Source: Escherichia coli
Lineage (GTDB): Bacteria; Pseudomonadota; Gammaproteobacteria; Enterobacterales; Enterobacteriaceae
Length of the DNA: 64,000 nt
NCBI RefSeq assembly: GCF_048403405.1
Contig: NZ_CP183129.1
Direction: 5' to 3' (one strand)
Shown: piece by piece, positions 6,699 through 49,427 of the stretch
Layout: every line of letters begins with the position of its first letter
Numbering within the stretch: the stretch's first letter is position 1
Translations under genes and position numbers: made by a program
The notes under the pieces: generated by a model
Database searches by the model: none
Told to the model about the DNA's origin: nothing
Seen by the model: only the letters and a program-made list of their open reading frames with translations

Positions 6699-8970
6699 GG
6701 AAAACTCCCCAGTGTTGCAGCGATGCCAGTGCCTGCTGTTCGAGTTGTTGATGATGTGCAATGGCTTGCGGTGGACAATGCAACGGCATTTGCAGCGCTG
6801 AAACGGGAAGCTGTGCGAGCTGGTAATGCTCAAGCACCTGATGCGCCAGCGTCCCGCGTTCTCGTGGTGGTAGCCAGGCCATCGCCGCGCGTAAATCGGG
6901 CAGGGCGTTAATAAAATCGTCGTCACTCAGTTGATTTAAATGACTACTGAAACCGGCGATAAATGCCGGCTGACAGGCCAGTTGATGGCGGGCCAGCGCC
7001 AGCAAACCGTGCAGCGCTTCGCCGGATTGTGCCGGGGATAATTGCGCCAGCATTGTCAGCGCCGCTTCGGCACTGGCGTTGGGATGTTCCAGACGCATCA
7101 GTGCGCCAAGAGCCGCGCCGCGATCCAGCGCCGGGGCATGAATCGCCTGACTGCGGCGCTCCAGTAAGGCTACCGCCGCAGAAAGCGAAACGCCGGGTAA
7201 ATTAACGCCGCTATGTAGATCGCGCAGGATATGGCAAAGCGTCTGCCAGCTATGCAGGTGAGCGTGAAACTCCTTTTCATCTGGTCTGCCGTTAGATTCA
7301 CACAGCCACAGCGTGCGATCGATAGCCGCGCATAACGTCGTTTGTAATATCTGCGCGCCTTGCATACCGCTAATTTCATCCAGCCGCCATAAGGCATATA
7401 GCACTTCCAGCGCCTGGCCCATTTCGGCAAATTGATTTTCCTGGGCGATTAATAATGTGAGTTGCTCCAATAATTGTTGACTGAAGGACGCCAGACCCGC
7501 TAACGCCGCCTGGCTAAGACATGTGGTGATGCAGCCGATTCCACCCGCGTCCAGCATATCGGCTTCTAATTTATGGCGTGCGGCTTCCTGGAGTGTTGCA
7601 CCAAAGCAGGCGGCCTCAATCAATGCCGCATGTTGGCTAAGCGGGCGGGTTAATTTCCAGCGTTCTTCACCGTTGCCTGCAAGTGTCAGTGTACTTCCCT
7701 GCTGGCGCACAACCCCTGGGATCTCCAGTATTACCAGCCGATGTAACACCTGACTTTGCGCCAGTCCATTGGAGTTAAAGCGATTTAAGGTAAGCTCCGC
7801 CGGAAGAGAGATTGCGGTACGTTCCAGTTCGCAGGTGACATCTTTTGGCAGAGGCGGTTGTGGCGTAGAAGGGGCAAGTTTACCGAATCCGTCACCCGCT
7901 AATGTGTCTATCAACGTTAGCAGAATCGGATCGGTATCGGGATGAATAACGCCGCGATAGCTCCACGGCAACGGCGCATTCAGGGCTTCTTTAATCAGCG
8001 ATCCTGCTATGGCATCCAGCCAGTCAGTGCGTAACGGTAGTGTATGACCGCGCAACTGTGCCAGTGCCATCGCATGCAGATGAGCGGCAGCCATATCCGC
8101 GGTCGAAGCAGGCAACTTGTGCTGGCGCAAACGGGTGAGAACCGTTTTTAGCAGTTGTTCTCCCGCCTGCTGTAAGCCCCACTGCCAGCACCAGTTTTGC
8201 CAGACCGGGGCAGGCATTCCTGAAAGGTATCCTGCCAGCACATCAAGGCGCTTTTCACTGTAGGGGGTGAGATAACAACCTGTAACGGCATCATCCAGTA
8301 AGAGCAATTCTGGCGTGTTAATTACCTGCAGACATTCGCGCCACATTTTTGCCAGTGCCGGAGCGTGCCAGCCACCGCAGACAACTAACACGTCGCCATT
8401 ATTTTGCTGCATCGCCCATCCAATCCAGCGGGCCATAAAGGCTTCGCGCTGACGATTGAGAGCATCTCCGGGGGAGTCGCCCCGCAGTTGGGCAAAATAG
8501 TGCGCAAGTGCAGAGGGTAATGCAGTTTGCTGGCTTTCATCTTCGAACAAGTGATCCCACAGGGTGTCGCTGTTATCCATGCGGGTGGCACGCAGCAGCA
8601 AGGTCTGGCTTTCCTCTTGCGTATCAGGCGAATCGTCCTCTTCTTCACTCTGCGCCCAGCAAGGCAAATCGATGAAGTAAGTTTGTGCCTGAATACGACG
8701 AGCGGCTTGTAGCGCCTGCCACTCCGGCGAAAATTCAGCAAATGGCGTCCAGGCACCACGCCCGGGGGCCGCACCGTCCTGATACTGGCAATAACTGTAA
8801 ATAGCTACCGGAAGCTGGTGAGCTAACAACAGTTCGTCTACCCGGTCATTAAAATCAGCCGGGCCTTCAATCAACACGTATCGTGGCCGCTGGCTTTCGA
8901 TTAACGATTTCACCAGCCGGGCGCAGGCCGGACTATGATGCCGGATGCCGACAATTAACGGCTCGCTCAT
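6691..8970 (-). CDS. yehM: uncharacterised protein YehM
   Basis: ORF 6691..9111 trimmed to the ATG at 8970 (MSEPLIVGIRHHS..., 759 aa); operon position between yehL and yehP. Confidence 0.8.
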   Translation of the reverse strand: MSEPLIVGIRHHSPACARLVKSLIESQRPRYVLIEGPADFNDRVDELLLAHQLPVAIYSYCQYQDGAAPGRGAWTPFAEFSPEWQALQAARRIQAQTYFIDLPCWAQSEEEDDSPDTQEESQTLLLRATRMDNSDTLWDHLFEDESQQTALPSALAHYFAQLRGDSPGDALNRQREAFMARWIGWAMQQNNGDVLVVCGGWHAPALAKMWRECLQVINTPELLLLDDAVTGCYLTPYSEKRLDVLAGYLSGMPAPVWQNWCWQWGLQQAGEQLLKTVLTRLRQHKLPASTADMAAAHLHAMALAQLRGHTLPLRTDWLDAIAGSLIKEALNAPLPWSYRGVIHPDTDPILLTLIDTLAGDGFGKLAPSTPQPPLPKDVTCELERTAISLPAELTLNRFNSNGLAQSQVLHRLVILEIPGVVRQQGSTLTLAGNGEERWKLTRPLSQHAALIEAACFGATLQEAARHKLEADMLDAGGIGCITTCLSQAALAGLASFSQQLLEQLTLLIAQENQFAEMGQALEVLYALWRLDEISGMQGAQILQTTLCAAIDRTLWLCESNGRPDEKEFHAHLHSWQTLCHILRDLHSGVNLPGVSLSAAVALLERRSQAIHAPALDRGAALGALMRLEHPNASAEAALTMLAQLSPAQSGEALHGLLALARHQLACQPAFIAGFSSHLNQLSDDDFINALPDLRAAMAWLPPRERGTLAHQVLEHYQLAQLPVSALQMPLHCPPQAIAHHQQLEQQALASLQHWGVFHV

Positions 8971-8980
8971 GCATCTTTCC

Positions 8981-10069
8981 TCACGGCAGGCGGTGGCGAG
9001 CTTGATAATAAGCCTGCCAGTGAGCTTCTTTATGTGTGGCGACGCGCTGTTCGAAGTAACGGCGCAGACGCGCGCGATCTTCTTCGTTATCTTTGACGAT
9101 GGTTCCGGCAATACAGTCCACCAGGTCGGCAGGCTCCCCCGCGCGATTCGCTAAAAACCAGGCGCGGACACCCACAGCATGGGCCACGTTAACGGCTTCA
9201 GCGGTGGACATAATCGCTGTCAGTGTATCCATTGACGTTTTCTTTTCGCCGTTGGCACGCAGATCGCGGAACGTGCGCACCAGTAATTCCAGTACCGCGT
9301 CAGGCACTTTATGCGGAATACCGCTATGGGCCAGCAAACGCGCCGAAGCACTGGCAACCAGTTCCAGCTCCTGGGCGAAATCCATAATCGGAAAGACAGT
9401 TTCAAAATCGAAGCGACGCTTTAGCGCAGCACTCATTTCATTGACGCCGCGATCGCGGGTATTGGCAGTGGCAATAATATTAAAGCCTTCCCGCGCATAG
9501 AGCTGACTGGCTTCACCAGTGAGTTCCGGCACCGTCATTACCCTGTCAGAAAGCATACCTAACAGACAGTCTTGTACTTCCAGCGGTGTACGCGTTATCT
9601 CTTCAAAACGGACGATTTTGCCGTCGCGCATTCCCTGGTAAAGCGGGGCAGGGACCAGCGCTTCCGTTGATGGACCATGATTGATAAGCAGAGCGTAGTT
9701 CCAGCCGTACTTGATTTGATCTTCGGTGGTAGATGCGCCGCCCTGGATGGTTAACCCGGCATCGCCGCTAATAGCGGTTGCCAGTAATTCAGACAGGAGA
9801 GATTTTGCGGTGCCAGGTTCCCCCACCAACATCAAACCGCGCCCGGTGGCAAGAGTGACTAACATACGTTCGACAGCGGAGGGACTAATCACCACTTTAC
9901 GGCTAATATTTTGCGCGCTATCGCCAAGGATAAAAGCACGGGCCGCAGGCAAACTTAACTGCCAACCGGGCGGGCAAGGTGCGTTATCATTTTGTTTTAA
10001 TTTTGCCAGTTCATCGGCGTATAACACAGCAGCAGGCGGACGCTGCAGATGATTATTCTGCGGTGACAT
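8981..10069 (-). CDS. yehL: MoxR-like AAA+ ATPase YehL
   Basis: ORF 8981..10135 trimmed to the ATG at 10069 (MSPQNNHLQ..., 362 aa). Walker A GEPGTAKS; Walker B-like IVRFEE. Confidence 0.85.
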   Translation of the reverse strand: MSPQNNHLQRPPAAVLYADELAKLKQNDNAPCPPGWQLSLPAARAFILGDSAQNISRKVVISPSAVERMLVTLATGRGLMLVGEPGTAKSLLSELLATAISGDAGLTIQGGASTTEDQIKYGWNYALLINHGPSTEALVPAPLYQGMRDGKIVRFEEITRTPLEVQDCLLGMLSDRVMTVPELTGEASQLYAREGFNIIATANTRDRGVNEMSAALKRRFDFETVFPIMDFAQELELVASASARLLAHSGIPHKVPDAVLELLVRTFRDLRANGEKKTSMDTLTAIMSTAEAVNVAHAVGVRAWFLANRAGEPADLVDCIAGTIVKDNEEDRARLRRYFEQRVATHKEAHWQAYYQARHRLP

Positions 10070-10180
10070 ATATTCATCCCTGAAATGTATTAATGAAATA
10101 AACGATATTTTACGCGCAATAAATGTTTGGCGCATTAGTTGTTTGAGCGAAAAATATCTGGAAAGCAGATCACAGTAAAT

Positions 10181-18474: not shown

Positions 18475-21400
18475 TTAATCAAAAAGTGATTCGATGTCGT
18501 TAATGAGTTCGCTGGCGGTGATGGCATCAAGCGCGGAGAACGTGAGCGAGGGCTGTGTACTGTAGCGTTCCCCTGGTGAAGTGATTTTTACGCTTTCAAC
18601 AGGTAGCAGGTCGCTATACCCCGTTTCGCCATAAATTAATGAAAAATGTTCTGTTTCAAGTTCGAGAGCGCCATAAGGGGTAGATTTGCGCATCGCATAG
18701 ACGCTGCCGCTTTCTTCCAGACGTTGCCAGCCTCGACGTTCCAGCCCGACAATGCGCCCGGCCTGGCAAAGACGTCCTTGCCAGCGTATCAATTCATGGG
18801 TATCACGTTCATTATCAGTAAGGTGGTAATAACCACGATCGAGTTGGCGAAAGGGAGGAAGCTTTTCGTAATCAGCATAAATTTGCCCAAATGCAGTGGC
18901 GGATTCAGGAGATATTTCCAGCACATGCGGTATACCGATGTTTCCTGCTGGCAGCGTGAATAACTCATCCTGCGCATCGCTGTAAGTGCTGTCTTCTGCG
19001 ACCCGGAAGCAGGCGATCAGCGTGTTTTCCTCAGTATATACCCCCCATAACACCCGTCGGGTTAAGTGACGTACCAGCGGATGCTCCACCAGAAACAGGC
19101 GGAACTGCTCTGCCGTCCAGCGTCTGCGCTGGCACATATCCTGCTCCAGACGATCAATCTGCTGGCTGGCAATGGCGTGCACATCTTTCTTCAATTGTTT
19201 GAAGAGGTTAACGGAGTCAGTTGCCAGTGTTTGATCATCGCTCTGATTTGGTTTGGGTAAATCTTTCAGGACTTTGCCGTTTGCATCGTGCACTACAGGT
19301 TTTAAGGTTTCGTCAAAACCAACGGTGAATTGACGTGGGCCGAAATCCAGTATCAGCGAGCCACTGTTATCAAGCCCTAAATCTGGAGCCAGGCGGTCTT
19401 CCAGTTCAGCCATAGTCAGCCCACGGTTTTCAGCAACTATGTTGATTTTCTCGCGGGCATGTTCCTGTAATGCTTTGAATTTAATTTTTCGCGCGATGCC
19501 ATTAAGCAGCATTAGCGCAACATCGCTGCCAATATCAGCTAATACATCCAGCCCGTAAACCGCGCGTTTATGCTGGGATTCACCCGGCCAGGCACGGATA
19601 AGCGGGGTTAATTTACGTGCGGTGTCGTCATTGCCTAAAATCCCAAGCGAAGTAAATGCCCAGTTTTCTTTTGCGGGTGCGCCAGCTTCTGTCCATGCCG
19701 TGTAGAGATCCCAGCCAAAGTCAGCCAGTGATTCGTGGGTGAAGGTCTCTTTGATGGTCGCCAGCCCAGCGTAGGAGGTAATGTCGCGTGGAAAGCTCAA
19801 CATTGTGCCCAGGTGGCGCATAGCGTCATCTGGCAGAGGCAGGTTGTTACTTTTAAGCCGTGGTCTGCGCCATAAGGTGAACTGATAAAAGCCGGGCAGT
19901 GGGGCGATTTTAGCGGGATATTCTTCCAGCGGATCGCTATCGAACAATGTTGCCAGCGCAGCTAAAACATCAGGTTGGTTGTATCTCCGGCCGATTTCTT
20001 CAATCGTTTCTCGCTGGTTTAATTTCACTAGCAGGCGGAATGCCTGGCGGGCATATTCCCGATTTTGGCACGGTTTGCCCAGCGCCAAAGGCAGTAGCCC
20101 GGCGGCGGCATGGCGCGGGTTATTTGCCAGCCAATTAATGGCATCCTTGTAAGCCATTTTTTTCTGTAATCGCTGCGCCATTGGTAAGGCTAGTTCACTG
20201 GCCCCAATAAAGAGGGTGAATATCCACAGTCGTTGATGATCTCGTTGCAAGCAGGTCATAAACGCAGGAATGGCCGTACTACCAAAAACTGCCAGAATCT
20301 CTTTCTCACCTGAATATCGCTCCTCAATGATTATTTGGTTGAGAAATGAAATCGCCTGTTGTCCCGGTAAGTAACAAAGCGCAGATAGATTCCAGCTTTT
20401 GTTGGCATTGTTGTGATATTTCGCAAACTCAGCTTTTAGTGCTGGAAAATCAAAGCGCAACAAGGCATCAACAGCGCTTTGCGGTATATATTTTTTTTCA
20501 TGTAAGTCATCTTCGCAATGCAGCCATTCATTAAAACCTAATTGCCAAAGGATTTGTTGTTCTGGTGTAAAAGGAATGAAAGATGTCTCCCAGCTTTCTT
20601 TTTCAATTAGTGGCAGGTCGGTAAATAAGGTTTGCTGTGATGACTGATATTGCGCGATTTCACTGAATCTGGATATGTCAGTATGACTGATTAACTCTGT
20701 AATTCCTGGCGTGATGTCAGTGACTGCAGGGATGGGAAGCACCGGTAAATCAAATACGGGTATTACATTCGTTTTCTTATTTATTACCCACGGTGGAGCG
20801 ACAAACAGCTCCGGCAACATATCCGCAGTGGCGTATTCACATTCTTCAGCGACTAACTGAGTACGACATTCAGATAAGATGCCTGCCGCTTTAGCATTAA
20901 CCCAGGGAATGACGTCAGTGACTAAATCTGGCGTGGCGGTAATCAGTTTGACAAGCGCTTTACGCCACTGTGCATCTTCATGTATTGCCAGTAAAGTTGC
21001 ATAAGCGGCAAGAGCCGCAGCGGGATGTTTTTGACAGGCTTTGCTTAAGTATTCCAGGTGCTTTTTCTTGCCAATTACACCGAGGATCAGAATTTGAATC
21101 GCATCCGGGTGATTCGTTTTCCATAGCCATTTGACAAGATCTTCAGTCTCGCTGATGCGCTCGAAGAGATAAGTGGGATTGTCAGAATGCTCTTCCGTAA
21201 ACTCAAGAAGTATCCGGCTTACACCGCGCACCCCATTATTTGCCAGCAACATTGCCAGATAAGCGCGAAAATCATGATACAACGGTGGGAAGTCGTATTT
21301 TTCTGCTGTAGTCAGAGCGGCGTCATCGGTTACCACCAGTCTTAACCAGGTCATCGCCGGAACGTTTTGATCTGCATAACGTAGCGCCATAGCATTGGCA

Positions 21401-22272
21401 ATATCCGGGCGTTCAGGGAGCAGTAACGCCGCAAAAGGTTGCCGTGCTGGGGATAGCGAGGGAATAGCAGCGAGAACTTTATCTACACAGCGTTGCCACT
21501 CATCTTCTGAAGCGAGTGAAAGATGATGACATAGACGTTGATGCCAGTTCGGTAGTGATTCTGCTTTGAGATCAGGGGGAATAATGGTGGTGACGTCGGC
21601 TTTTACTGGTTTATATTTGAGTTGAAGAGCGAGAAGGGCGATTTCAACGGTAGTTTCCAGACCACAGCGAATGACTAAGTCATCGACCAGTTCATCTGTA
21701 GAGTAAGAGTTCCATAAATTCCAGAGCAATGCCGCATCAGATTGTATACTTCCTGTTTGTTGATTATTCAGAATTCGCCTTTGTAACTCGGCAAACGCCA
21801 GCTGCCAGTTTTCAGGATAAGAGCGGTAATTATTGTCGGGGTCATATGCCCTGGTGTTATTCGCGATGCGCTTCCATATTTGGCCATCTTTGTACAGATA
21901 ATTGATCTCTCTGGGGCGAGAGCGATGAGGAAAAGCAAATCGATTAATATCGCCAGTTACCGGAATGACTGCATCATCAGCCACCCATGGGCGTTTGTTT
22001 TTACTCTCAGGGGAGGTTTCAACTTCAGGAGTGGCTTTGGTGATGGGGGGGATATGCACGTTTGCTAAAGCATTTTCCACATAGCCTTTTTTCGTTTTCT
22101 CTGCGATCAGCTTAAGCTCCGCTTTTGCCGCTGCCGCAGCATCCGCAAAACTTTTTACCTGGTTTTGCCCTTTGGTGCCAACTTTTCCCCAACAGATATG
22201 CAACTCGTTTCCCTGTTGCTCCACCGCCCAGAATTTATGTGATTTTTCGTCCTGAAAGATAAAGTGCCTCAT
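18475..22272 (-). CDS. MolR-like giant protein, N-terminal WGR domain plus DUF4132 (1265 aa), second paralog
   Basis: N-terminus MRHFIFQDEKSHKFWAVEQQGNELHICWGKVGTKGQ, near-identical to the adjacent paralog over about 60 aa; conserved C-terminal block; 12-nt gap to the next gene. Confidence 0.85.
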   Translation of the reverse strand: MRHFIFQDEKSHKFWAVEQQGNELHICWGKVGTKGQNQVKSFADAAAAAKAELKLIAEKTKKGYVENALANVHIPPITKATPEVETSPESKNKRPWVADDAVIPVTGDINRFAFPHRSRPREINYLYKDGQIWKRIANNTRAYDPDNNYRSYPENWQLAFAELQRRILNNQQTGSIQSDAALLWNLWNSYSTDELVDDLVIRCGLETTVEIALLALQLKYKPVKADVTTIIPPDLKAESLPNWHQRLCHHLSLASEDEWQRCVDKVLAAIPSLSPARQPFAALLLPERPDIANAMALRYADQNVPAMTWLRLVVTDDAALTTAEKYDFPPLYHDFRAYLAMLLANNGVRGVSRILLEFTEEHSDNPTYLFERISETEDLVKWLWKTNHPDAIQILILGVIGKKKHLEYLSKACQKHPAAALAAYATLLAIHEDAQWRKALVKLITATPDLVTDVIPWVNAKAAGILSECRTQLVAEECEYATADMLPELFVAPPWVINKKTNVIPVFDLPVLPIPAVTDITPGITELISHTDISRFSEIAQYQSSQQTLFTDLPLIEKESWETSFIPFTPEQQILWQLGFNEWLHCEDDLHEKKYIPQSAVDALLRFDFPALKAEFAKYHNNANKSWNLSALCYLPGQQAISFLNQIIIEERYSGEKEILAVFGSTAIPAFMTCLQRDHQRLWIFTLFIGASELALPMAQRLQKKMAYKDAINWLANNPRHAAAGLLPLALGKPCQNREYARQAFRLLVKLNQRETIEEIGRRYNQPDVLAALATLFDSDPLEEYPAKIAPLPGFYQFTLWRRPRLKSNNLPLPDDAMRHLGTMLSFPRDITSYAGLATIKETFTHESLADFGWDLYTAWTEAGAPAKENWAFTSLGILGNDDTARKLTPLIRAWPGESQHKRAVYGLDVLADIGSDVALMLLNGIARKIKFKALQEHAREKINIVAENRGLTMAELEDRLAPDLGLDNSGSLILDFGPRQFTVGFDETLKPVVHDANGKVLKDLPKPNQSDDQTLATDSVNLFKQLKKDVHAIASQQIDRLEQDMCQRRRWTAEQFRLFLVEHPLVRHLTRRVLWGVYTEENTLIACFRVAEDSTYSDAQDELFTLPAGNIGIPHVLEISPESATAFGQIYADYEKLPPFRQLDRGYYHLTDNERDTHELIRWQGRLCQAGRIVGLERRGWQRLEESGSVYAMRKSTPYGALELETEHFSLIYGETGYSDLLPVESVKITSPGERYSTQPSLTFSALDAITASELINDIESLFD

Positions 22273-24577: not shown

Positions 24578-25687
24578 ATGAACGAACAATCCCAGGCCAA
24601 ATCACCAGAAGCCTTGCGCGCAATGGTCGCCGGGACACTGGCCAATTTTCAGCACCCAACCCTGAAGCATAACCTCACCACGCTGAAAGCGTTGCACCAT
24701 GTCGCCTGGATGGACGACACGTTGCATGTGGAACTGGTTATGCCATTCGTCTGGCATAGCGCGTTCGAAGAGTTAAAAGAGCAATGTAGCGCCGAACTGC
24801 TGCGCATCACCGGGGCGAAAGCTATCGACTGGAAACTGTCGCACAATATCGCCACCTTAAAACGCGTGAAGAATCAGCCGGGAATTAACGGCGTGAAGAA
24901 CATCATTGCGGTCAGCTCCGGTAAAGGCGGCGTGGGTAAATCCTCCACGGCGGTAAACCTGGCGCTGGCACTGGCGGCGGAAGGGGCGAAAGTCGGCATT
25001 CTGGACGCCGATATCTACGGCCCATCAATACCCACCATGCTGGGTGCAGAAAATCAGCGTCCAACTTCGCCGGACGGTACCCATATGGCACCGATTATGT
25101 CTCATGGACTGGCAACCAATTCAATTGGTTATCTGGTCACTGACGACAATGCGATGGTGTGGCGTGGTCCGATGGCGAGCAAGGCGTTAATGCAGATGTT
25201 GCAGGAAACCTTGTGGCCGGATCTCGACTATCTGGTGCTTGATATGCCGCCAGGCACCGGTGACATTCAATTGACACTGGCACAAAACATACCAGTAACT
25301 GGCGCGGTAGTGGTCACCACTCCGCAGGACATTGCGTTGATCGATGCGAAAAAAGGCATTGTGATGTTCGAGAAAGTCGAGGTTCCGGTGCTCGGTATTG
25401 TCGAGAACATGAGTGTGCATATTTGCAGTAACTGTGGTCACCATGAACCGATTTTCGGTACCGGTGGTGCAGAGAAACTGGCCGAGAAATATCACACGCA
25501 GTTGCTGGGGCAGATGCCGTTACACATCTCCTTACGTGAAGATCTCGATAAAGGCACGCCAACGGTTATCAGCCGTCCGGAGAGCGAATTTACCGCTATC
25601 TACCGCCAGCTGGCTGACCGCGTTGCAGCCCAGCTTTATTGGCAGGGAGAAGTCATTCCTGGCGAGATTTCCTTCCGCGCGGTCTAA
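24578..25687 (+). CDS. apbC: Fe-S cluster carrier ATPase ApbC/Mrp
   Basis: ORF 24548..25687 trimmed to the ATG at 24578 with AAGGAG SD (369 aa). P-loop SGKGGVGKSS and CxxC (CSNCGHH). Confidence 0.95.
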   Translation: MNEQSQAKSPEALRAMVAGTLANFQHPTLKHNLTTLKALHHVAWMDDTLHVELVMPFVWHSAFEELKEQCSAELLRITGAKAIDWKLSHNIATLKRVKNQPGINGVKNIIAVSSGKGGVGKSSTAVNLALALAAEGAKVGILDADIYGPSIPTMLGAENQRPTSPDGTHMAPIMSHGLATNSIGYLVTDDNAMVWRGPMASKALMQMLQETLWPDLDYLVLDMPPGTGDIQLTLAQNIPVTGAVVVTTPQDIALIDAKKGIVMFEKVEVPVLGIVENMSVHICSNCGHHEPIFGTGGAEKLAEKYHTQLLGQMPLHISLREDLDKGTPTVISRPESEFTAIYRQLADRVAAQLYWQGEVIPGEISFRAV

Positions 25688-25716
25688 CGCGTATTAACCT
25701 TTTTGGTTGTTTTTCA

Positions 25717-25757
25717 TACACCGCAGAGATGTTACATTGATGCGGTGTATTTGTTTT
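25717..25757 (+). terminator. apbC terminator
   Basis: tacaccgc (25717-25724) pairs with gcggtgta (25742-25749); followed by tttgttttt. Confidence 0.5.
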
Positions 25758-25949
25758 TGCCGCATTAATGAACACTTATTTAATGCTGCAAATATTCTGC
25801 GGACCTTCGTCCGAAACTCTATAAAGTCGATTGATCGTACAGGCAATGCTTCATTGTCATCCTTCGTGGCTGTGTAGTGGATGTACAGCTATAGTTTGTT
25901 ATGCACTCATTCTATCCAGGCATAACCTTTACTACAGGGATAACGTTCA

Positions 25950-26231
25950 ATGAATAAGTACTGGCTGTCAGGAATTATTTTTCTTGCCTATGGAATGGCT
26001 TCTCCCGCGTTCTCTTCACAGACTGCCACATTAACGATTAATGGCAGGATCAGTCCCCCAACATGCAGTATGGCTATGGTTAATGGTCAACCTCAACAGT
26101 ATTGTGGTCAGTTAACGTATGATGTTGATACCCGTCATCAGGTTTCTTCGCCAGTCAAAGGTGTAACGACAGAAGTGGTTGTTGCAGGTAGCGATAGCAA
26201 ACGTCGAATCGTGTTAAATCGCTACGATTAA
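25950..26231 (+). CDS. yehE: small secreted protein YehE
   Basis: 93-aa ORF with an N-terminal signal peptide; lies between apbC and the fimbrial operon. Confidence 0.7.
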   Translation: MNKYWLSGIIFLAYGMASPAFSSQTATLTINGRISPPTCSMAMVNGQPQQYCGQLTYDVDTRHQVSSPVKGVTTEVVVAGSDSKRRIVLNRYD

Positions 26232-26262
26232 TTTGCCACCCTGGTTTTTTAATCGGATTTAG

Positions 26263-26305
26263 AAAGCTGAAATCATTCGTGTGAATGATTTCAGCTTTTT
26301 TATTT
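26263..26305 (+). terminator. yehE rho-independent terminator
   Basis: 16-bp stem aaagctgaaatcattc / gaatgatttcagcttt with a gtgtg loop, then ttttatttat. Confidence 0.8.
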
Positions 26306-26526
26306 ATATCAATAATACCACTTACAAAAATCTGCATTAATTAATAGATGTGATAAATATTTAATATGCTTAAGTATTTGTTGTGTTTATATTGCAATAG
26401 TTAATTTGTTTTAAATCAATAAAACAATATGTTTACATTGCGGCAACTTTTTTGATGTGAGAAATTTGTTTCCAAGAGATACAGACTCTTAACAACCAAA
26501 AAATAAATTTTATTAAGGAACATATT

Positions 26527-27069
26527 ATGAAACGTTCAATTATTGCTGCCGCTGTCTTTTCTTCTTTTTTTATGAGCGCTGGGGTATTTGCCGCAGACGT
26601 TGATACCGGAACATTAACCATTAAAGGGAATATTGCAGAATCTCCGTGTAAATTCGAAGCGGGTGGCGATTCAGTAAGTATTAATATGCCAACTGTACCA
26701 ACCACTGTCTTTGAAGGTAAAGCTAAATACTCGACCTATGATGATGCAGTCGGTGTAACCAGCAGCATGTTAAAAATTAGCTGTCCGAAAGAAGTTGCTG
26801 GTGTAAAACTCTCGTTGATTACCAACGATAAAATAACCGGAAACGATAAGGCGATAGCCAGTAGCAACGATACCGTGGGGTACTATCTCTATTTAGGTGA
26901 TAACAGCGATGTCCTGGATGTTTCTGCACCTTTTAACATTGAGAGTTATAAAACAGCGGAAGGTCAATATGCTATTCCGTTTAAAGCAAAATACCTGAAG
27001 CTGACAGATAATTCAGTGCAATCAGGTGATGTGTTATCTTCTCTGGTTATGCGTGTGGCGCAGGATTAA
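26527..27069 (+). CDS. yehD: fimbrial major subunit YehD
   Basis: 180 aa; signal peptide; fimbrial-subunit fold features (a Cys pair, C-terminal beta-strand motif); first gene of the chaperone-usher operon. Confidence 0.85.
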   Translation: MKRSIIAAAVFSSFFMSAGVFAADVDTGTLTIKGNIAESPCKFEAGGDSVSINMPTVPTTVFEGKAKYSTYDDAVGVTSSMLKISCPKEVAGVKLSLITNDKITGNDKAIASSNDTVGYYLYLGDNSDVLDVSAPFNIESYKTAEGQYAIPFKAKYLKLTDNSVQSGDVLSSLVMRVAQD

Positions 27070-27149
27070 TAAATAAAACTTCAAGTTTCTCCAGGTAATA
27101 AACATGGCCGCTATCCCCATGGCGGCCTTTTAATTTAAGAGGCATTAAG

Positions 27150-27824
27150 ATGAAAGGATTATTAGCTTTACTCATTTCTTCTATGGTCCTTCCTGCACAT
27201 GCCGGTATTGTTATCTACGGGACGCGTATTATTTACCCGGCAGAAAATAAAGAAGTGATGGTGCAGTTGATGAATCAGGGAAACCGTTCTTCGCTGCTGC
27301 AGGCGTGGATTGATGATGGCGATACGTCGTTACCACCAGAAAAAATTCAGGTTCCTTTCATGTTAACGCCACCAGTGGCAAAAATAGGGGCAAATTCCGG
27401 GCAGCAAGTAAAAATCAAAATTATGCCGAATAAACTGCCCACTAATAAAGAGAGCATTTTTTATCTGAATGTTCTGGATATTCCACCAAATAGTCCAGAG
27501 CAAGAGGGCAAGAATGCACTGAAATTTGCAATGCAAAACAGAATTAAATTGTTTTACCGGCCTGCGGGTATTGCGCCAGTAAATAAAGCGACATTTAAAA
27601 AGTTACTGGTAAATCGCAGTGGCAATGGATTGGTGATAAAAAATGACTCAGCAAATTGGGTAACGATTTCGGATGTCAAAGCTAATAATGTCAAAGTCAA
27701 TTATGAAACTATTATGATTGCCCCCTTAGAAAGTCAGAGTATTAATGTCAAAAGTAATAATGCGAATAACTGGTATCTGACCATTATCGATGACCATGGC
27801 AACTATATTAGTGACAAAATTTAA
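27150..27824 (+). CDS. yehC: periplasmic fimbrial chaperone YehC
   Basis: 224 aa; signal peptide MKGLLALLISSMVLPAHA; PapD-like chaperone; an in-frame stop at 27099 precludes a longer N-terminus. Confidence 0.85.
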   Translation: MKGLLALLISSMVLPAHAGIVIYGTRIIYPAENKEVMVQLMNQGNRSSLLQAWIDDGDTSLPPEKIQVPFMLTPPVAKIGANSGQQVKIKIMPNKLPTNKESIFYLNVLDIPPNSPEQEGKNALKFAMQNRIKLFYRPAGIAPVNKATFKKLLVNRSGNGLVIKNDSANWVTISDVKANNVKVNYETIMIAPLESQSINVKSNNANNWYLTIIDDHGNYISDKI

Positions 27825-27839: not shown

Positions 27840-30320
27840 ATGTTGAGAATGACCCCACTTGCATCAGCAATCGTAGCGTTATTGCTCGGCATTGAAGCTT
27901 ATGCAGCTGAAGAAACCTTTGATACCCATTTTATGATAGGTGGAATGAAAGACCAGCAGGTTGCAAATATTCGTCTTGATGATAATCAACCCTTGCCGGG
28001 GCAGTATGACATCGATATTTATGTCAATAAGCAATGGCGCGGGAAATATGAGATCATTGTTAAAGACAACCCGCAAGAAACATGTATATCAAGGGAAATT
28101 ATCAAGCGGTTAGGCATTAATACCGATAACTTTGCCAGCGGTAAGCAATGTTTAACATTTGAGCAACTTGTTCAGGGTGGGAGCTATACCTGGGATATCG
28201 GAGTTTTTCGTCTCGATTTCAGTGTCCCGCAGGCGTGGGTGGAAGAACTGGAAAGTGGCTATGTTCCACCGGAAAACTGGGAGCGGGGTATTAATGCGTT
28301 TTATACCTCTTATTATGTGAGTCAGTATTACAGCGACTATAAAGCGTCGGGTAATAGCAAGAGTACATATGTACGTTTTAACAGCGGGTTAAACTTACTG
28401 GGGTGGCAACTGCATTCTGATGCCAGTTTCAGTAAAACAAATAGCAATCCAGGGGGGTGGAAAAGCAATACCCTGTATCTGGAACGTGGATTTGCCCAAC
28501 TTCTCGGCACGCTTCGCGTGGGTGATATGTACACATCAAGCGATATTTTTGATTCTGTTCGCTTCAGCGGTGTGCGGTTGTTTCGTGATATGCAGATGTT
28601 GCCTAACTCGAAACAGAATTTTACTCCACGGGTGCAGGGGATTGCTCAGAGTAACGCGCTGGTAACTATTGAACAGAACGGTTTTGTGGTTTATCAGAAA
28701 GAGGTTCCTCCTGGCCCGTTTGCGATTACAGATTTGCAGTTGGCCGGTGGTGGAGCAGATCTTGATGTCAGCGTGAAAGAGGCGGACGGTTCGGTAACCA
28801 CCTATCTGGTGCCTTATGCAGCGGTGCCGAATATGCTGCAACCTGGCGTGTCGAAATATGATTTTGCGGCGGGTCGTAGCCATATTGAAGGGGCGAGCAA
28901 ACAAAGTGATTTTGTCCAGGCGGGTTATCAGTATGGTTTTAATAACTTATTGACGCTGTATGGCGGATCGATGGTCGCGAATAATTATTACGCGTTCACT
29001 TTGGGGACTGGCTGGAATACACGCATTGGTGCCATTTCCGTCGATGCCACGAAGTCGCATAGTAAACAAGACAACGGCGATGTGTTTGACGGGCAAAGTT
29101 ATCAAATTGCCTACAACAAATTTGTGAGCCAAACGTCGACGCGTTTTGGTCTGGCGGCCTGGCGTTATTCGTCGCGTGATTACCGGACATTTAACGATCA
29201 TGTTTGGGCAAACAATAAAGATAATTATCGCCGTGATGAAAACGATATCTATGACATTGCCGATTATTACCAGAACGATTTTGGCCGTAAAAATAGCTTT
29301 TCTGCCAATATGAGCCAGTCATTGCCAGAAGGCTGGGGTTCTGTGTCCTTAAGTACGTTATGGCGAGATTACTGGGGGCGTAGCGGCAGCAGTAAGGATT
29401 ATCAGTTGAGTTATTCCAACAACCTGCGACGGATAAGCTATACCCTCGCGGCAAGCCAGGCTTATGACGAGAATCATCATGAAGAGAAACGTTTTAATAT
29501 TTTTATATCGATTCCCTTTGATTGGGGTGATGACGTTACGACGCCTCGTCGGCAAATATATATGTCTAACTCAACGACGTTTGATGATCAGGGTTTTGCC
29601 TCAAATAATACGGGATTATCGGGAACCGTTGGAAGCCGGGATCAATTTAACTATGGGGTCAACCTGAGTCATCAGCATCAGGGAAATGAAACGACAGCTG
29701 GAGCGAATTTAACCTGGAACGCGCCGGTTGCGACAGTGAATGGCAGTTATAGTCAGTCGAGTACTTATCGACAGGCTGGAGCCAGTGTTTCAGGGGGCAT
29801 TGTCGCCTGGTCGGAGGGCGTTAATCTGGCGAACCGTCTTTCCGAAACGTTTGCAGTGATGAATGCGCCAGGAATTAAAGATGCTTATGTCAATGGGCAA
29901 AAATATCGCACAACAAACCGTAATGGAGTGGTGGTATACGACGGAATGACACCTTATCGGGAAAATCACCTGATGCTGGATGTGTCGCAAAGCGATAGCG
30001 AAGCAGAATTGCGCGGTAACCGGAAAATTGCCGCACCTTATCGCGGCGCGGTTGTACTGGTTAATTTTGATACCGATCAGCGCAAGCCCTGGTTTATAAA
30101 AGCGTTAAGAACGGATGGGCAACCATTAACGTTTGGTTATGAAGTCAATGATATCCATGGTCATAATATTGGCGTTGTCGGCCAGGGAAGCCAGTTATTT
30201 ATTCGCACCAATGAAGTACCGCCGTCGGTTAATGTGGCAATTAATAAGCAACAAGGACTTTCATGCACAATCACCTTCGGTAAAGAGATTGATGAAAGTA
30301 GAAATTATATTTGCCAGTAA
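27840..30320 (+). CDS. yehB: fimbrial outer-membrane usher YehB
   Basis: ORF 27825..30320 trimmed to the ATG at 27840 (MLRMTPLASAIVALLLGIEAYA, 826 aa); AGGAG SD upstream; usher size and position. Confidence 0.85.
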   Translation: MLRMTPLASAIVALLLGIEAYAAEETFDTHFMIGGMKDQQVANIRLDDNQPLPGQYDIDIYVNKQWRGKYEIIVKDNPQETCISREIIKRLGINTDNFASGKQCLTFEQLVQGGSYTWDIGVFRLDFSVPQAWVEELESGYVPPENWERGINAFYTSYYVSQYYSDYKASGNSKSTYVRFNSGLNLLGWQLHSDASFSKTNSNPGGWKSNTLYLERGFAQLLGTLRVGDMYTSSDIFDSVRFSGVRLFRDMQMLPNSKQNFTPRVQGIAQSNALVTIEQNGFVVYQKEVPPGPFAITDLQLAGGGADLDVSVKEADGSVTTYLVPYAAVPNMLQPGVSKYDFAAGRSHIEGASKQSDFVQAGYQYGFNNLLTLYGGSMVANNYYAFTLGTGWNTRIGAISVDATKSHSKQDNGDVFDGQSYQIAYNKFVSQTSTRFGLAAWRYSSRDYRTFNDHVWANNKDNYRRDENDIYDIADYYQNDFGRKNSFSANMSQSLPEGWGSVSLSTLWRDYWGRSGSSKDYQLSYSNNLRRISYTLAASQAYDENHHEEKRFNIFISIPFDWGDDVTTPRRQIYMSNSTTFDDQGFASNNTGLSGTVGSRDQFNYGVNLSHQHQGNETTAGANLTWNAPVATVNGSYSQSSTYRQAGASVSGGIVAWSEGVNLANRLSETFAVMNAPGIKDAYVNGQKYRTTNRNGVVVYDGMTPYRENHLMLDVSQSDSEAELRGNRKIAAPYRGAVVLVNFDTDQRKPWFIKALRTDGQPLTFGYEVNDIHGHNIGVVGQGSQLFIRTNEVPPSVNVAINKQQGLSCTITFGKEIDESRNYICQ

Positions 30321-30335: not shown

Positions 30336-31370
30336 ATGAAAATTCGCATAATGCTATTTATATTAATGATGATGGTTATGCCAGTGAGCTATGCAGCATG
30401 TTATAGTGAGTTATCTGTTCAGCACAATTTGGTTGTTCAGGGGGATTTTGCACTTACTCAAACACAAATGGCGACCTATGAGCATAATTTTAATGATTCG
30501 TCATGCGTGAGTACAAATACTATCACCCCTATGAGCCCGTCGGATATTATTGTTGGACTTTATAACGATACCATTAAATTAAATTTACATTTTGAATGGA
30601 CCAATAAAAATAACATCACGTTGTCAAATAATCAGACCAGTTTCACCAATGGTTATTCGGTAACGGTGACACCTGCAGCCAGTAATGCAAAAGTGAATGT
30701 TTCTGCGGGGGGCGGCGGTTCAGTGATGATTAATGGAGTTGCGACATTATCCAGTGCTTCATCATCGACACGCGGGAGTGCCGCAGTACAATTTCTACTG
30801 TGTTTATTAGGTGGCAAGTCATGGGATGCATGTGTAAATAGCTACAGAAATGCATTGGCACAAAATGCAGGTGTCTATTCCTTTAATCTGGCATTGTCAT
30901 ATAACCCGATAACAACGACCTGCAAACCGGACGATTTATTAATTACTTTAGAGAGTACTCCCGTTTCACAATTACCAGCCACAGGTAACAAAGCAACAAT
31001 AAATAGTAAAAAAGGAGATATTATTCTGCGTTGTAAAAATTTATTAGGTCAACAAAATCAAACATCACGAAAAATGCAGGTGTATTTATCAAGTTCTGAT
31101 TTGTGGGGCAGTAGTAACACGATCCTGAAAGGTGCGGAAGATAATGGCGTAGGGTTTATTCTTGAAAGTAATGGTTCGCCAGTCACACTTTTAAATATCA
31201 CTAACAGCAGTAAAGGATATACAAATTTAAAGGAAGTTGCTGCGAAGTCAAAACTTACAGATACAACGGTTTCAATTCCGATAACTGCCAGTTACTACGT
31301 CTACGATACAAACAAAGTTAAATCTGGCGCACTGGAGGCAACCGCATTAATCAACGTGAAATACGACTAA
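30336..31370 (+). CDS. yehA: fimbrial adhesin-like tip subunit YehA
   Basis: 344 aa; signal peptide; last gene of the yehDCBA operon. Confidence 0.8.
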   Translation: MKIRIMLFILMMMVMPVSYAACYSELSVQHNLVVQGDFALTQTQMATYEHNFNDSSCVSTNTITPMSPSDIIVGLYNDTIKLNLHFEWTNKNNITLSNNQTSFTNGYSVTVTPAASNAKVNVSAGGGGSVMINGVATLSSASSSTRGSAAVQFLLCLLGGKSWDACVNSYRNALAQNAGVYSFNLALSYNPITTTCKPDDLLITLESTPVSQLPATGNKATINSKKGDIILRCKNLLGQQNQTSRKMQVYLSSSDLWGSSNTILKGAEDNGVGFILESNGSPVTLLNITNSSKGYTNLKEVAAKSKLTDTTVSIPITASYYVYDTNKVKSGALEATALINVKYD

Positions 31371-48695: not shown

Positions 48696-49109
48696 GATCG
48701 TATGTGCCTTTATGATTGGTCTGTAGATAGTGTAGAGCAGAAAAGAAAAGGTGGAGTCAGAACAGGATGAAAGTCGGAGGATAAAAAATCAGTTCAAGTA
48801 TGGAGGATTCGGTGGTTACCACCAGGAGCTTGCAATGGGGACAGTGAATGTTAACGGTAGCCATAGGTAAATTTCAAAAAAGAGCATATACCTAATATTC
48901 AACTAAACAGTGGCATCTTCAATATACTATTAAAAATATATTAACCCCCCCATGGGGTTACCCGGAAGGGCCTCCGTGTATGTAATTCCTACTTATGTAG
49001 GAAATGTTGTACAGAACATTTATTATAATCCTATTCAATTATAATAATCATGCCATTATTATATTTAAACACCAGAGCGTGTCGTTGGTATTTAATGGGG
49101 GAAGGTGAG

Positions 49110-49427
49110 ATGAAAAAGATAGCTGCTATATCATTAATTAGTATTTTTCTTATGTCTGGTTGTGCTGTGCATAATGATGAAACAAGTATCGGTAAATTTG
49201 GTCTTGCATATAAAAGTAATATTCAGCGTAAACTCGATAACCAATACTACACCGAAGCCGAAGCTTCTTTAGCCAGGGGCAGAATTTCTGGTGCAGAAAA
49301 TATAGTAAAAAATGATGCAGCTCATTTCTGTGTTACTCAGGGCAAAAAAATGCAGATAGTTGACCTGAAGACAGAAGGTGCAGGATTACATGGCGTCGCT
49401 CGTCTGACATTCAAATGTGGAGAGTGA
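49110..49427 (+). CDS. yegR: small lipoprotein-like protein YegR
   Basis: ORF 49050..49427 trimmed to the ATG at 49110 with SD (MKKIAAISLISIFLMSGCAVHN, 105 aa); lipobox MSGC. Confidence 0.7.
   Translation: MKKIAAISLISIFLMSGCAVHNDETSIGKFGLAYKSNIQRKLDNQYYTEAEASLARGRISGAENIVKNDAAHFCVTQGKKMQIVDLKTEGAGLHGVARLTFKCGE

Follow-up and report, generated by a model that had tools for sequence, protein, structure and literature searches.

The AT-rich control region of the cryptic yehDCBA fimbrial operon of Escherichia coli and the hairpin that follows its subunit gene

A terminator or hairpin after the major subunit gene belongs to the general background of fimbrial operons. The hairpin after papA was reportedly described by Baga et al. 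in 1985 and again in 1988. The hairpin region between fimA and fimI is annotated as the sRNA FimR2, which is generated by RNase E (PMC9723502), and this precedent implies that such spacers can do more than terminate. Upstream of the subunit genes, the described counterparts are the promoter islands, which are AT-rich regions with many potential transcription starts that are bound by RNA polymerase and in which transcription is almost silent (PMC3661553). The spacer between yehE and yehD is one of the 78 islands of E. coli in that list (island 2190229_357), together with the spacers located 5' of yadN, sfmA, elfA, yraH, ybgD and yfcV; for the f9 promoter, in vitro binding of H-NS is reported (PMC3966885).

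In its entry, island 2190229_357 is flagged as bound by H-NS in two ChIP datasets, those of Kahramanoglou and of Oshima (PMC3661553), and yehDCBA is present in an H-NS regulon list, in which SlyA overproduction is found to raise its expression 3.6-fold (PMC5797941). The operon has been termed cryptic and H-NS-repressed, and its derepression on removal of hns is reported (Korea et al. 2010, as quoted in PMC5797941 and PMC3559732). H-NS occupancy and repression of this locus have thus been shown experimentally by others, and the H-NS interpretation of the spacer is already published, both for this exact spacer and in general. In the preliminary description of this DNA, made from sequence, the region had been read as an H-NS target in front of a cryptic, silenced operon; both readings are borne out by the published ChIP binding, the regulon listing and the reported repression, and the proposed checks of H-NS binding by ChIP and of expression in hns mutant cells are in essence already published and agree with it. 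The yeh locus also lies within a static extended protein-occupancy domain, and because loss of this occupancy alone does not induce yehDCBA (bioRxiv 10.1101/2024.06.20.599902), H-NS is not the whole story. Yeh is a core and ancient E. coli fimbria; the locus is syntenic in Escherichia, Salmonella and Citrobacter (PMC3559732), and Yeh affects virulence gene expression and gut colonisation of EHEC (PMC11287998).

The window analysed here is a stretch of 64,000 nucleotides (64 kb) of an E. coli chromosome, and the features discussed are collected in Table 1. The gene order in RefSeq is metG (-), apbC/mrp, yehE, yehD, yehC, yehB and yehA, followed by rcnB and rcnA (-). The RefSeq coordinates are shared with the record of strain CFSAN061763, and a 1.3-kb query around the feature is 100% identical; the same query matches 5,413 of the 5,426 complete E. 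coli genomes. The yeh gene names given in the preliminary description are right according to the RefSeq products and, for YehE, YehD and YehC, according to Pfam. With a subunit, a PapD-like chaperone, an usher and an adhesin encoded in the same direction (Pfam, RefSeq products), yehDCBA is a chaperone-usher operon, and its G+C content is 0.42-0.43, compared with 0.50-0.51 in the flanks. The yehC/yehB and yehB/yehA junctions are 15 nt long and leave no room for a hairpin.

Table 1. Features of the yehE-yehA region, with positions in the 64-kb window.
Feature	Position	Strand	Details
yehE	25950-26231	+	RefSeq annotation; Pfam DUF2574, E 9e-51; small secreted protein
yehE intrinsic terminator	26261-26301	+	stem 26261-26278 / 26283-26300, loop GTGT, T6 26296-26301
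Distal AT-rich segment	26306-26383	.	sequence varies, composition held
Proximal conserved block (putative core promoter, operators and 5' UTR of yehDCBA)	26384-26526	+	conservation
ArcA-P box	26407-26449	-	direct repeats, four in number and spaced by 11 bp; from the supplement of Park et al. 2013 (PMC3798270)
Candidate sigma-70 promoter	26410-26439	+	-35 TTTAAA 26410-26415, 18-nt spacer, -10 TACATT 26434-26439
yehD Shine-Dalgarno AAGGA	26515-26519	+	GGA 26517-26519 is the reported CsrA contact
yehD, major fimbrial subunit gene	26527-27069	+	RefSeq annotation; Pfam Fimbrial PF00419
yehD-yehC hairpin and tail	27106-27136	+	arms GGCCGCTAT (27106-27114) and ATGGCGGCC (27119-27127), loop CCCC; tail TTTTAATTT (27128-27136); terminator-like in the window allele
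yehC, chaperone	27150-27824	+	RefSeq annotation; Pfam PapD_N and PapD_C
yehB, usher	27840-30320	+	RefSeq annotation
yehA, adhesin-like	30336-31370	+	RefSeq annotation

The strong AT-richness and the A/T tracts that had been noticed between the yehE terminator and yehD are found as described. The G+C content is 0.226 at 26306-26526, compared with 0.505 across the whole window, and it is 0.251 when the complete 295-bp spacer (26232-26526) is considered. This is the most AT-rich place in the 64 kb, as shown by a sliding frame of 221 nt, for which the lowest value (G+C 0.213) is obtained at the frame that begins at 26296, while frames as AT-rich as 26306-26526 make up 0.04% of all frames and every one of them overlaps it. 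Elsewhere in the window the G+C content falls below 0.30 at one spot only, the yegS/yegR spacer near 49.0 kb. TA steps occur 12.2 times per 100 bp in 26306-26526, as against 4.7 window-wide (2.6-fold), and the A/T tracts of the spacer include AAAAAT at 26326, TTTTTT at 26448 and AAAAAAT at 26498.

In our own sigma-70 position-weight scan, whose output is a prediction, the 329-bp tile that contains the spacer has 38 promoter-like hits of at least 6 bits on the two strands, compared with at most 30 (median 4) in the 194 other tiles. The spacer therefore has the properties by which a promoter island is recognised, namely its AT content over about 300 bp and many sigma-70-like sites on both strands; with the ArcA site as anchor, island 2190229_357 corresponds to positions of about 26185-26541. 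The high-affinity motif of H-NS is said to be TCGATAAATT, from Lang et al. 2007. This motif is not enriched, there being one site with two mismatches in the whole spacer, and it is therefore not the basis of the H-NS binding.

The AT-rich stretch follows directly on the yehE terminator. The 18-pair stem of this terminator, with the core GCTGAAATCATTC / GAATGATTTCAGC, has a folding energy of -27.6 kcal/mol (z -7.4), and the terminator discriminant, calculated with ViennaRNA energies by the formula of d'Aubenton-Carafa et al. 1990, is +34 for the core stem. Among 11 Escherichia sequences, 98.5% of the alignment cells are paired, four pairs have compensatory double changes and the T-tract TTTTTTATT is invariant. 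The yehE stem-loop is a bona fide intrinsic terminator, and yehDCBA is therefore most likely transcribed from a separate promoter within the spacer.

The conservation of the spacer was studied in an alignment of the window, K-12, five other E. coli sequences (including O157:H7 and E2348/69), E. albertii, E. whittamii and two further Escherichia species. A scan of the genome collection with YehD reached only Escherichia and one other Enterobacteriaceae genome, which is used as the outgroup (L009). Within E. coli the 295-bp spacer is very polymorphic, most genomes being 80-95% identical to the window. Two layers are seen in the alignment. In the distal segment the mean pairwise identity is 0.678, as compared with 0.696 at the third codon positions of yehD, and yet its G+C content stays between 0.18 and 0.31 in every orthologue; this segment is probably a nucleation or spreading platform for H-NS. 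In the proximal block the mean pairwise identity is 0.900, rising to 0.92-0.97 across 26399-26488, and the coding sequences of yehD (0.861) and yehE (0.841) are both below it. Although YehD of the outgroup has just 60% identity, the elements TTTAAATCAATAAAACA (26410-26426) and CAAGAGATAC (26473-26482) are retained in this genome, and the order of the elements is also unchanged there (TTTAAATCAATAAAACA, TTCACATTG, CAAGAGATAC, TCTTAACAA and an AAGGAA Shine-Dalgarno sequence). As judged from these comparisons, the spacer is not merely a generic AT-rich sink for H-NS, since its proximal 145 bp or so are strongly sequence-constrained. This bipartite constraint is a modest addition to the known picture. 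The conserved yeh motifs were not found at the seven other K-12 fimbrial operon loci that were fetched, and a regulator shared across the cryptic fimbrial operons, considered as a separate possibility, was rejected on this basis.

The best guess for the yehDCBA promoter is the TTTAAA-18-TACATT site in the proximal block, with a predicted start near 26446. At 10.09 bits it is the joint top hit of the position-weight scan on the + strand, together with an equally scoring site of the variable distal segment, and the outgroup keeps it as TTTAAA-18-CACATT. A stricter sigma-70 consensus scan of the spacer returns one site in all and none on the + strand. Park et al. 2013 record 'no TSS' for yehD (PMC3798270), so that the promoter assignment is only a prediction. 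Promoter predictions in DNA as AT-rich as this are in general unreliable.

The best candidate promoter is overlaid by the ArcA-P box of Park et al. 2013, whose published sequence maps to the window with one mismatch and is exact in K-12. With its four direct repeats the site has the form of an ArcA-P operator, for which two or more TGTTA-like repeats with a centre-to-centre distance of 11 bp are required, and the 11-bp-spaced TGTnA / TGTTT repeat pair is kept in the outgroup. The repeats score 1.4, 7.5, 6.1 and 3.7 bits, the box has a modest score of 12.3 bits, an ArcA ChIP-seq peak is reported at yehD in one of two replicates (3.9x), and yehDCBA is up 5.4-fold in an arcA mutant (PMC3798270). 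ArcA SELEX also hit yehD (PMC6134199). The box and the effect of ArcA are therefore known from the experiments of others, and occlusion of the promoter by ArcA-P is what the overlap suggests.

Further downstream, the yehD Shine-Dalgarno sequence AAGGA shows no variation among the orthologues. In EHEC, CsrA binds the yehD 5' UTR via the GG of the Shine-Dalgarno sequence and promotes expression, as shown experimentally by a gel shift on the yeh 5' UTR that is lost when GG is changed into CC; ethanolamine plus B12 induces YehD in the same organism (PMC11287998). Since the conservation of the proximal block exceeds that of the nearby genes and the block is recognisable in the outgroup, it may be a dedicated activation device beyond the promoter and the ArcA box, and separately the hairpin after yehD could release a FimR2-like sRNA; both ideas are speculative, and we think them unlikely. 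One candidate for such a device may be an RNA element in the 5' UTR, in which the arms UUGUU..AAGAG and CUCUU..AACAA are kept in the outgroup despite a +3/-3 pair of indels, and in which a UUCC might base-pair with the CsrA-bound Shine-Dalgarno sequence. The other may be a site for a further activator that would signal when Yeh fimbriae are to be made. RNAalifold gives -4.7 kcal/mol for the putative 5' UTR with almost no covariation, and because the block is nearly invariant no structure of the 5' UTR can be claimed from this calculation. An Rfam scan of 25500-27500 at a permissive threshold returned only chance-level matches to eukaryotic miRNAs and snoRNAs, far below the gathering scores.

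The inverted repeat between yehD and yehC, previously placed at 27103-27126, is real, although these coordinates are off by one to three bases and the exact extent of the stem-loop is 27106-27127. The stem has nine pairs, six of which are G-C, with a 4-nt loop and a folding energy of -15.7 kcal/mol. When compared with shuffled sequences this stability is modest by itself (z -2.5; 2 of 200 shuffles fold as well), and the hairpin is considered to be real because of its conservation, not because of its folding energy alone. In the nine distinct Escherichia sequences, 97.6% of the alignment cells are paired, as compared with 16-61% in slid controls, and two pairs show compensatory double changes from G-C to A-U, whereas the loop varies freely (CCCC, CCC, CTCC, ATTC). 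In each of the eight K-12 chaperone-usher operons that were examined (yeh, fim, sfm, yad, elf, yra, yfc and ybg), a stable hairpin forms in the spacer behind the first subunit gene, which supports the earlier remark that such hairpins are common in fimbrial operons; no usable open-access source was found for the general statement that a terminator follows the major subunit gene.

The tail of the hairpin depends on the allele. The discriminant is +13.5 for the window allele, with the window and K-12 alleles at +13 to +15, and it is -28 to -38 for the alleles without the T-tail. The T-tail is absent from O157:H7-type sequences, E. albertii, E. whittamii and the two further Escherichia species, where GGCCAGCATAAAT or a similar sequence is found instead. 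The T-tailed junction is present in 4,897 of the 5,426 complete E. coli genomes (about 90%), and the T-less junction in 368. In the window allele a G+C-rich stem-loop, a U-rich tract 3' of the stem and pairing that is kept in evolution occur together, the tail having just four U residues before its first interruption. The 'attenuator' interpretation that had been proposed is plausible rather than proven, because the T-tail is limited to the main E. coli allele. In our reading, selection acts on the stem as an RNA structure by which the 3' end of yehD is defined or stabilised, and partial termination at the hairpin is, for the window allele, rather to be expected than not. The Term-seq supplement of Adams 2021 (PMC7815308) has no entries for yehC, yehD or yehE, the operon being silent under those conditions.

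These data can be combined into one account, in which an AT-rich H-NS platform is joined to a conserved promoter core with its ArcA-P and CsrA sites and to a hairpin at the 3' end of yehD, and as a whole we consider this account likely to be correct. The control region of the cryptic operon would be 26232-26526, with the yehE terminator at its beginning. The distal 80 bp or so (about 20% G+C), constrained in composition only, and the AT-rich body of the operon would be bound by H-NS, which would spread and silence the operon, and RNA polymerase would be drawn to the many promoter-like sites of this platform and kept unproductive, as in the published behaviour of promoter islands. The real promoter would be held in the sequence-constrained proximal 145 bp or so, where ArcA-P on its operator would add anaerobic repression and where CsrA, on the GGA of the Shine-Dalgarno sequence, would raise yehD expression post-transcriptionally. 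SlyA overproduction would lift the silencing in part. The hairpin would mark the 3' end of the pilin message, to which the window allele adds a U-rich tail, and it would probably act both as a leaky intrinsic terminator and as a 3' stabiliser, so that yehD mRNA would exceed the mRNA of the chaperone, the usher and the adhesin.

The silencing part of this account can be compared with other explanations. If the operon were kept silent mainly at the proximal block, by sequence-specific repressors (ArcA-P or another factor) or by a missing activator, with H-NS secondary, it would be understood why this block is conserved above the level of the coding sequence and is still present in an outgroup at 60% identity, why the operon is derepressed 5.4-fold in the arcA mutant, why it stays uninduced when the occupancy domain is lost, and why ethanolamine plus B12 induces YehD in EHEC. 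Against this, H-NS occupancy by ChIP and H-NS repression are independently reported in the sources as quoted above, and expression is raised by SlyA, a known antagonist of H-NS. We regard the explanation by specific regulators as rather unlikely, and the two mechanisms are not mutually exclusive. Many fimbrial operons are phase-variable, and the spacer was therefore also considered as a phase-variation switch, either an invertible element of the fimS type or a Dam/Lrp switch of the pap type. The features of such switches are absent: the spacer has no GATC (3.9 per kb window-wide), and flanking long-range inverted repeats, a recombinase gene or a PapI/PapB-like gene are not found nearby, so that this candidate was rejected as next to impossible. 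The AT-richness could, finally, be a passive leftover of a horizontal origin or of a mutational bias, with no regulatory role, which would be in agreement with the nearly synonymous rate at which the distal half evolves, with the AT-richness of the entire operon (0.42 G+C) and with the flagging of the locus as a genomic island by GIST and IslandViewer. However, the G+C content stays at 0.18-0.31 in all orthologues despite the turnover of the sequence, the locus is ancient, with conserved synteny across Escherichia, Salmonella and Citrobacter (PMC3559732), and the spacer is marked as bound by H-NS in vivo in its island entry (PMC3661553), which makes a passive origin very unlikely.

For the hairpin, the main competitor of the leaky terminator is an RNA that acts mainly as a 3'-end protector or arises by RNase E processing, as a stabiliser of yehD mRNA or as the source of a FimR2-like sRNA. 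It would be in agreement with the conservation of the stem with compensatory changes but not of the U-tail, with the lack of a canonical tail in most of the equivalent hairpins of the other K-12 chaperone-usher operons, with the RNase E-generated FimR2 from the fimA-fimI hairpin region (PMC9723502) and with the RT-PCR result that the yeh locus of EHEC is one transcript (PMC11287998). EHEC carries the T-less allele, however, and this RT-PCR result therefore says little about the window allele; in addition, the stem of the window runs directly into TTTTAATTT and passes the terminator discriminant, and the window shares its T-tailed junction with 4,897 of the 5,426 complete genomes. The position of the hairpin, in the spacer 3' of the subunit gene, is that of FimR2, but GGA motifs, as bound by CsrA, were sought in 27070-27136 and none was found, and no RNA has been reported from the yehD-yehC spacer. 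A protecting or processed hairpin in place of a terminator is thus a possibility of some weight, though not the one that we favour. By comparison, it is hardly conceivable that the inverted repeat is just the beginning of the coding sequence of yehC, as would follow from the K-12 annotation of b2110 (239 residues), which starts inside the hairpin from an ATG that matches window position 27104. In the window an extra C in the loop puts this ATG out of frame, with a TAA after nine codons, other alleles carry further indels, and the ATG at 27150, from which RefSeq annotates 224 residues, has a conserved AAGAGG located 7 nt upstream. The start of yehC is probably annotated 15 codons too far upstream in K-12. 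The leaky terminator with a stabilising function, as set out above, is therefore kept as the preferred reading of the hairpin.

The yeh control region and its hairpin are real and ordinary. The spacer is of little importance except for housekeeping, as its main claim has been published before, and what is added here amounts to small refinements, namely the division of the constraint into two parts, an ArcA box that coincides with the promoter candidate, a T-tail that depends on the allele, and the yehC start of K-12. They provide a map for promoter dissection: within the spacer only 26384-26526 is constrained in sequence, the best promoter candidate is overlaid by the published ArcA box, and the T-tail after yehD is present in about 90% of E. 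coli genomes and not in O157:H7. The results on the constraint, the ArcA box and the T-tail are also a warning against the transfer of EHEC transcript data to K-12-type alleles.

When the yeh region is compared with the known systems, it shares its extreme AT content, its dense promoter-like sites, its H-NS occupancy and its very low transcription with the promoter islands and with the cryptic operons yad, sfm, elf/ycb, yra, ybg, yfc and f9, and there is no difference in kind. The refinement is that in yeh the composition-only behaviour is confined to the distal half, whereas the proximal half is sequence-conserved and specific to yeh. Like the multi-repeat ArcA-P operators of Park et al. 2013, the yehD box has 11-bp direct repeats over a putative promoter; in comparison with such operators it is weak (12.3 bits), with a ChIP peak in one replicate. 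Orthologous clusters at the same chromosomal locus are reported for the Salmonella stc and the Citrobacter yeh-type operons (PMC3559732). In yeh, as in fimA-fimI/FimR2 and papA, a stable stem-loop directly follows the first subunit gene and lies in the one intercistronic gap that is long. The yeh window allele differs from most of the other K-12 equivalents by its canonical U-rich tail, and it differs from FimR2, which is a processed RNA with GGA motifs, in that its hairpin is without GGA and no processed RNA is known from it.

The start codon of yehC, the chaperone gene of the yehDCBA operon, is placed differently in the annotations of K-12 and of this strain. In K-12, yehC (b2110) is annotated as a 239-residue protein starting from an ATG located within the yehD–yehC hairpin. 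The extra C in the hairpin loop of the window puts this K-12-type ATG out of frame, such that a TAA is reached 9 codons on, and RefSeq starts yehC of the window at the ATG at 27150, giving 224 residues. A conserved AAGAGG is found 7 nt 5' of the latter ATG. The true start of K-12 yehC probably lies 15 codons downstream of the annotated one.

The yeh locus exists as deeply diverged alleles within E. coli, as shown when comparing window 25950-27200 with other strains. The O157:H7-type allele (L010, O157:H7 Z1814) is ~80% identical to the window over this region, and its yehD–yehC junction type is present in 368 complete genomes. The yehD–yehC spacer of this allele is identical to that of Escherichia sp. 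E1V33 (L008), which suggests, from sequence comparison, either ancient allele sharing or recombination. The yehE–yehD spacer is also a target of insertion sequences. In strain NR1442 (L013, 2501-3700), an IS1 lies directly 3' of the yehE terminator, and this insertion is associated with loss of the promoter, of yehD and of the 5' portion of yehC. In strain MS 145-7 (match H7), an IS903-family element is found inside the region.

The start of YehD (TGTLTIKGNIAESPC) is similar to the N terminus of YehE (signal peptide plus TATLTINGRISPPTC), and the DUF2574 profile matches residues 1-44 of YehD weakly (E 8e-4, below the cut-off). YehE may be a remnant or a derivative of a fimbrial subunit.

Coordinates of the features discussed (window positions)
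Feature	Position	Strand	Detail
Top-scoring promoter-like site of the yehE–yehD spacer	26345-26312	minus	TTAATG, 17 nt, TG-TATTAT
YehE/YehD N-terminal resemblance, regions compared	yehE 25950-26231; yehD 5' end 26527-26660		
Nested inverted repeat	26467-26496		TTGTT..AAGAG / CTCTT..AACAA
Predicted pairing, UUCC with Shine-Dalgarno GGAA	26470-26473 / 26516-26519		RNAalifold
yehC start region	27104-27152		K-12 locus L002, 5601-5646
yehM, yehL and DUF4132 pseudogenes	6703-10070 and 18476-22272		RefSeq annotation

The arms of the nested inverted repeat are retained in the outgroup, whose YehD is only 60% identical, despite a +3/-3 indel pair, and strain E69 disrupts two of the inner pairs. The inverted repeat and the UUCC–GGAA pairing, both nearly invariant in sequence, are candidate structures. 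A short A-run (26498-26503), lying 3' of the conserved block and 5' of the Shine-Dalgarno, varies in length between strains (A6 in the window, A5 in K-12 and A4 in E69).

Elsewhere in the window, the sole other spot with G+C below 0.30 is 48979-49225, the yegS/yegR spacer upstream of yegR, which adjoins a site-specific integrase gene (49786 onward). In the RefSeq annotation of this strain, yehM is marked as a pseudogene on account of an internal stop, and yehL and one of the DUF4132 genes on account of frameshifts.

The best-scoring predicted promoter-like site of the yehE–yehD spacer faces away from yehD, and its antisense transcripts would run into the yehE terminator and the yehE gene. It is located in the distal, nonconserved part of the spacer, as expected of the spurious sites of promoter islands.
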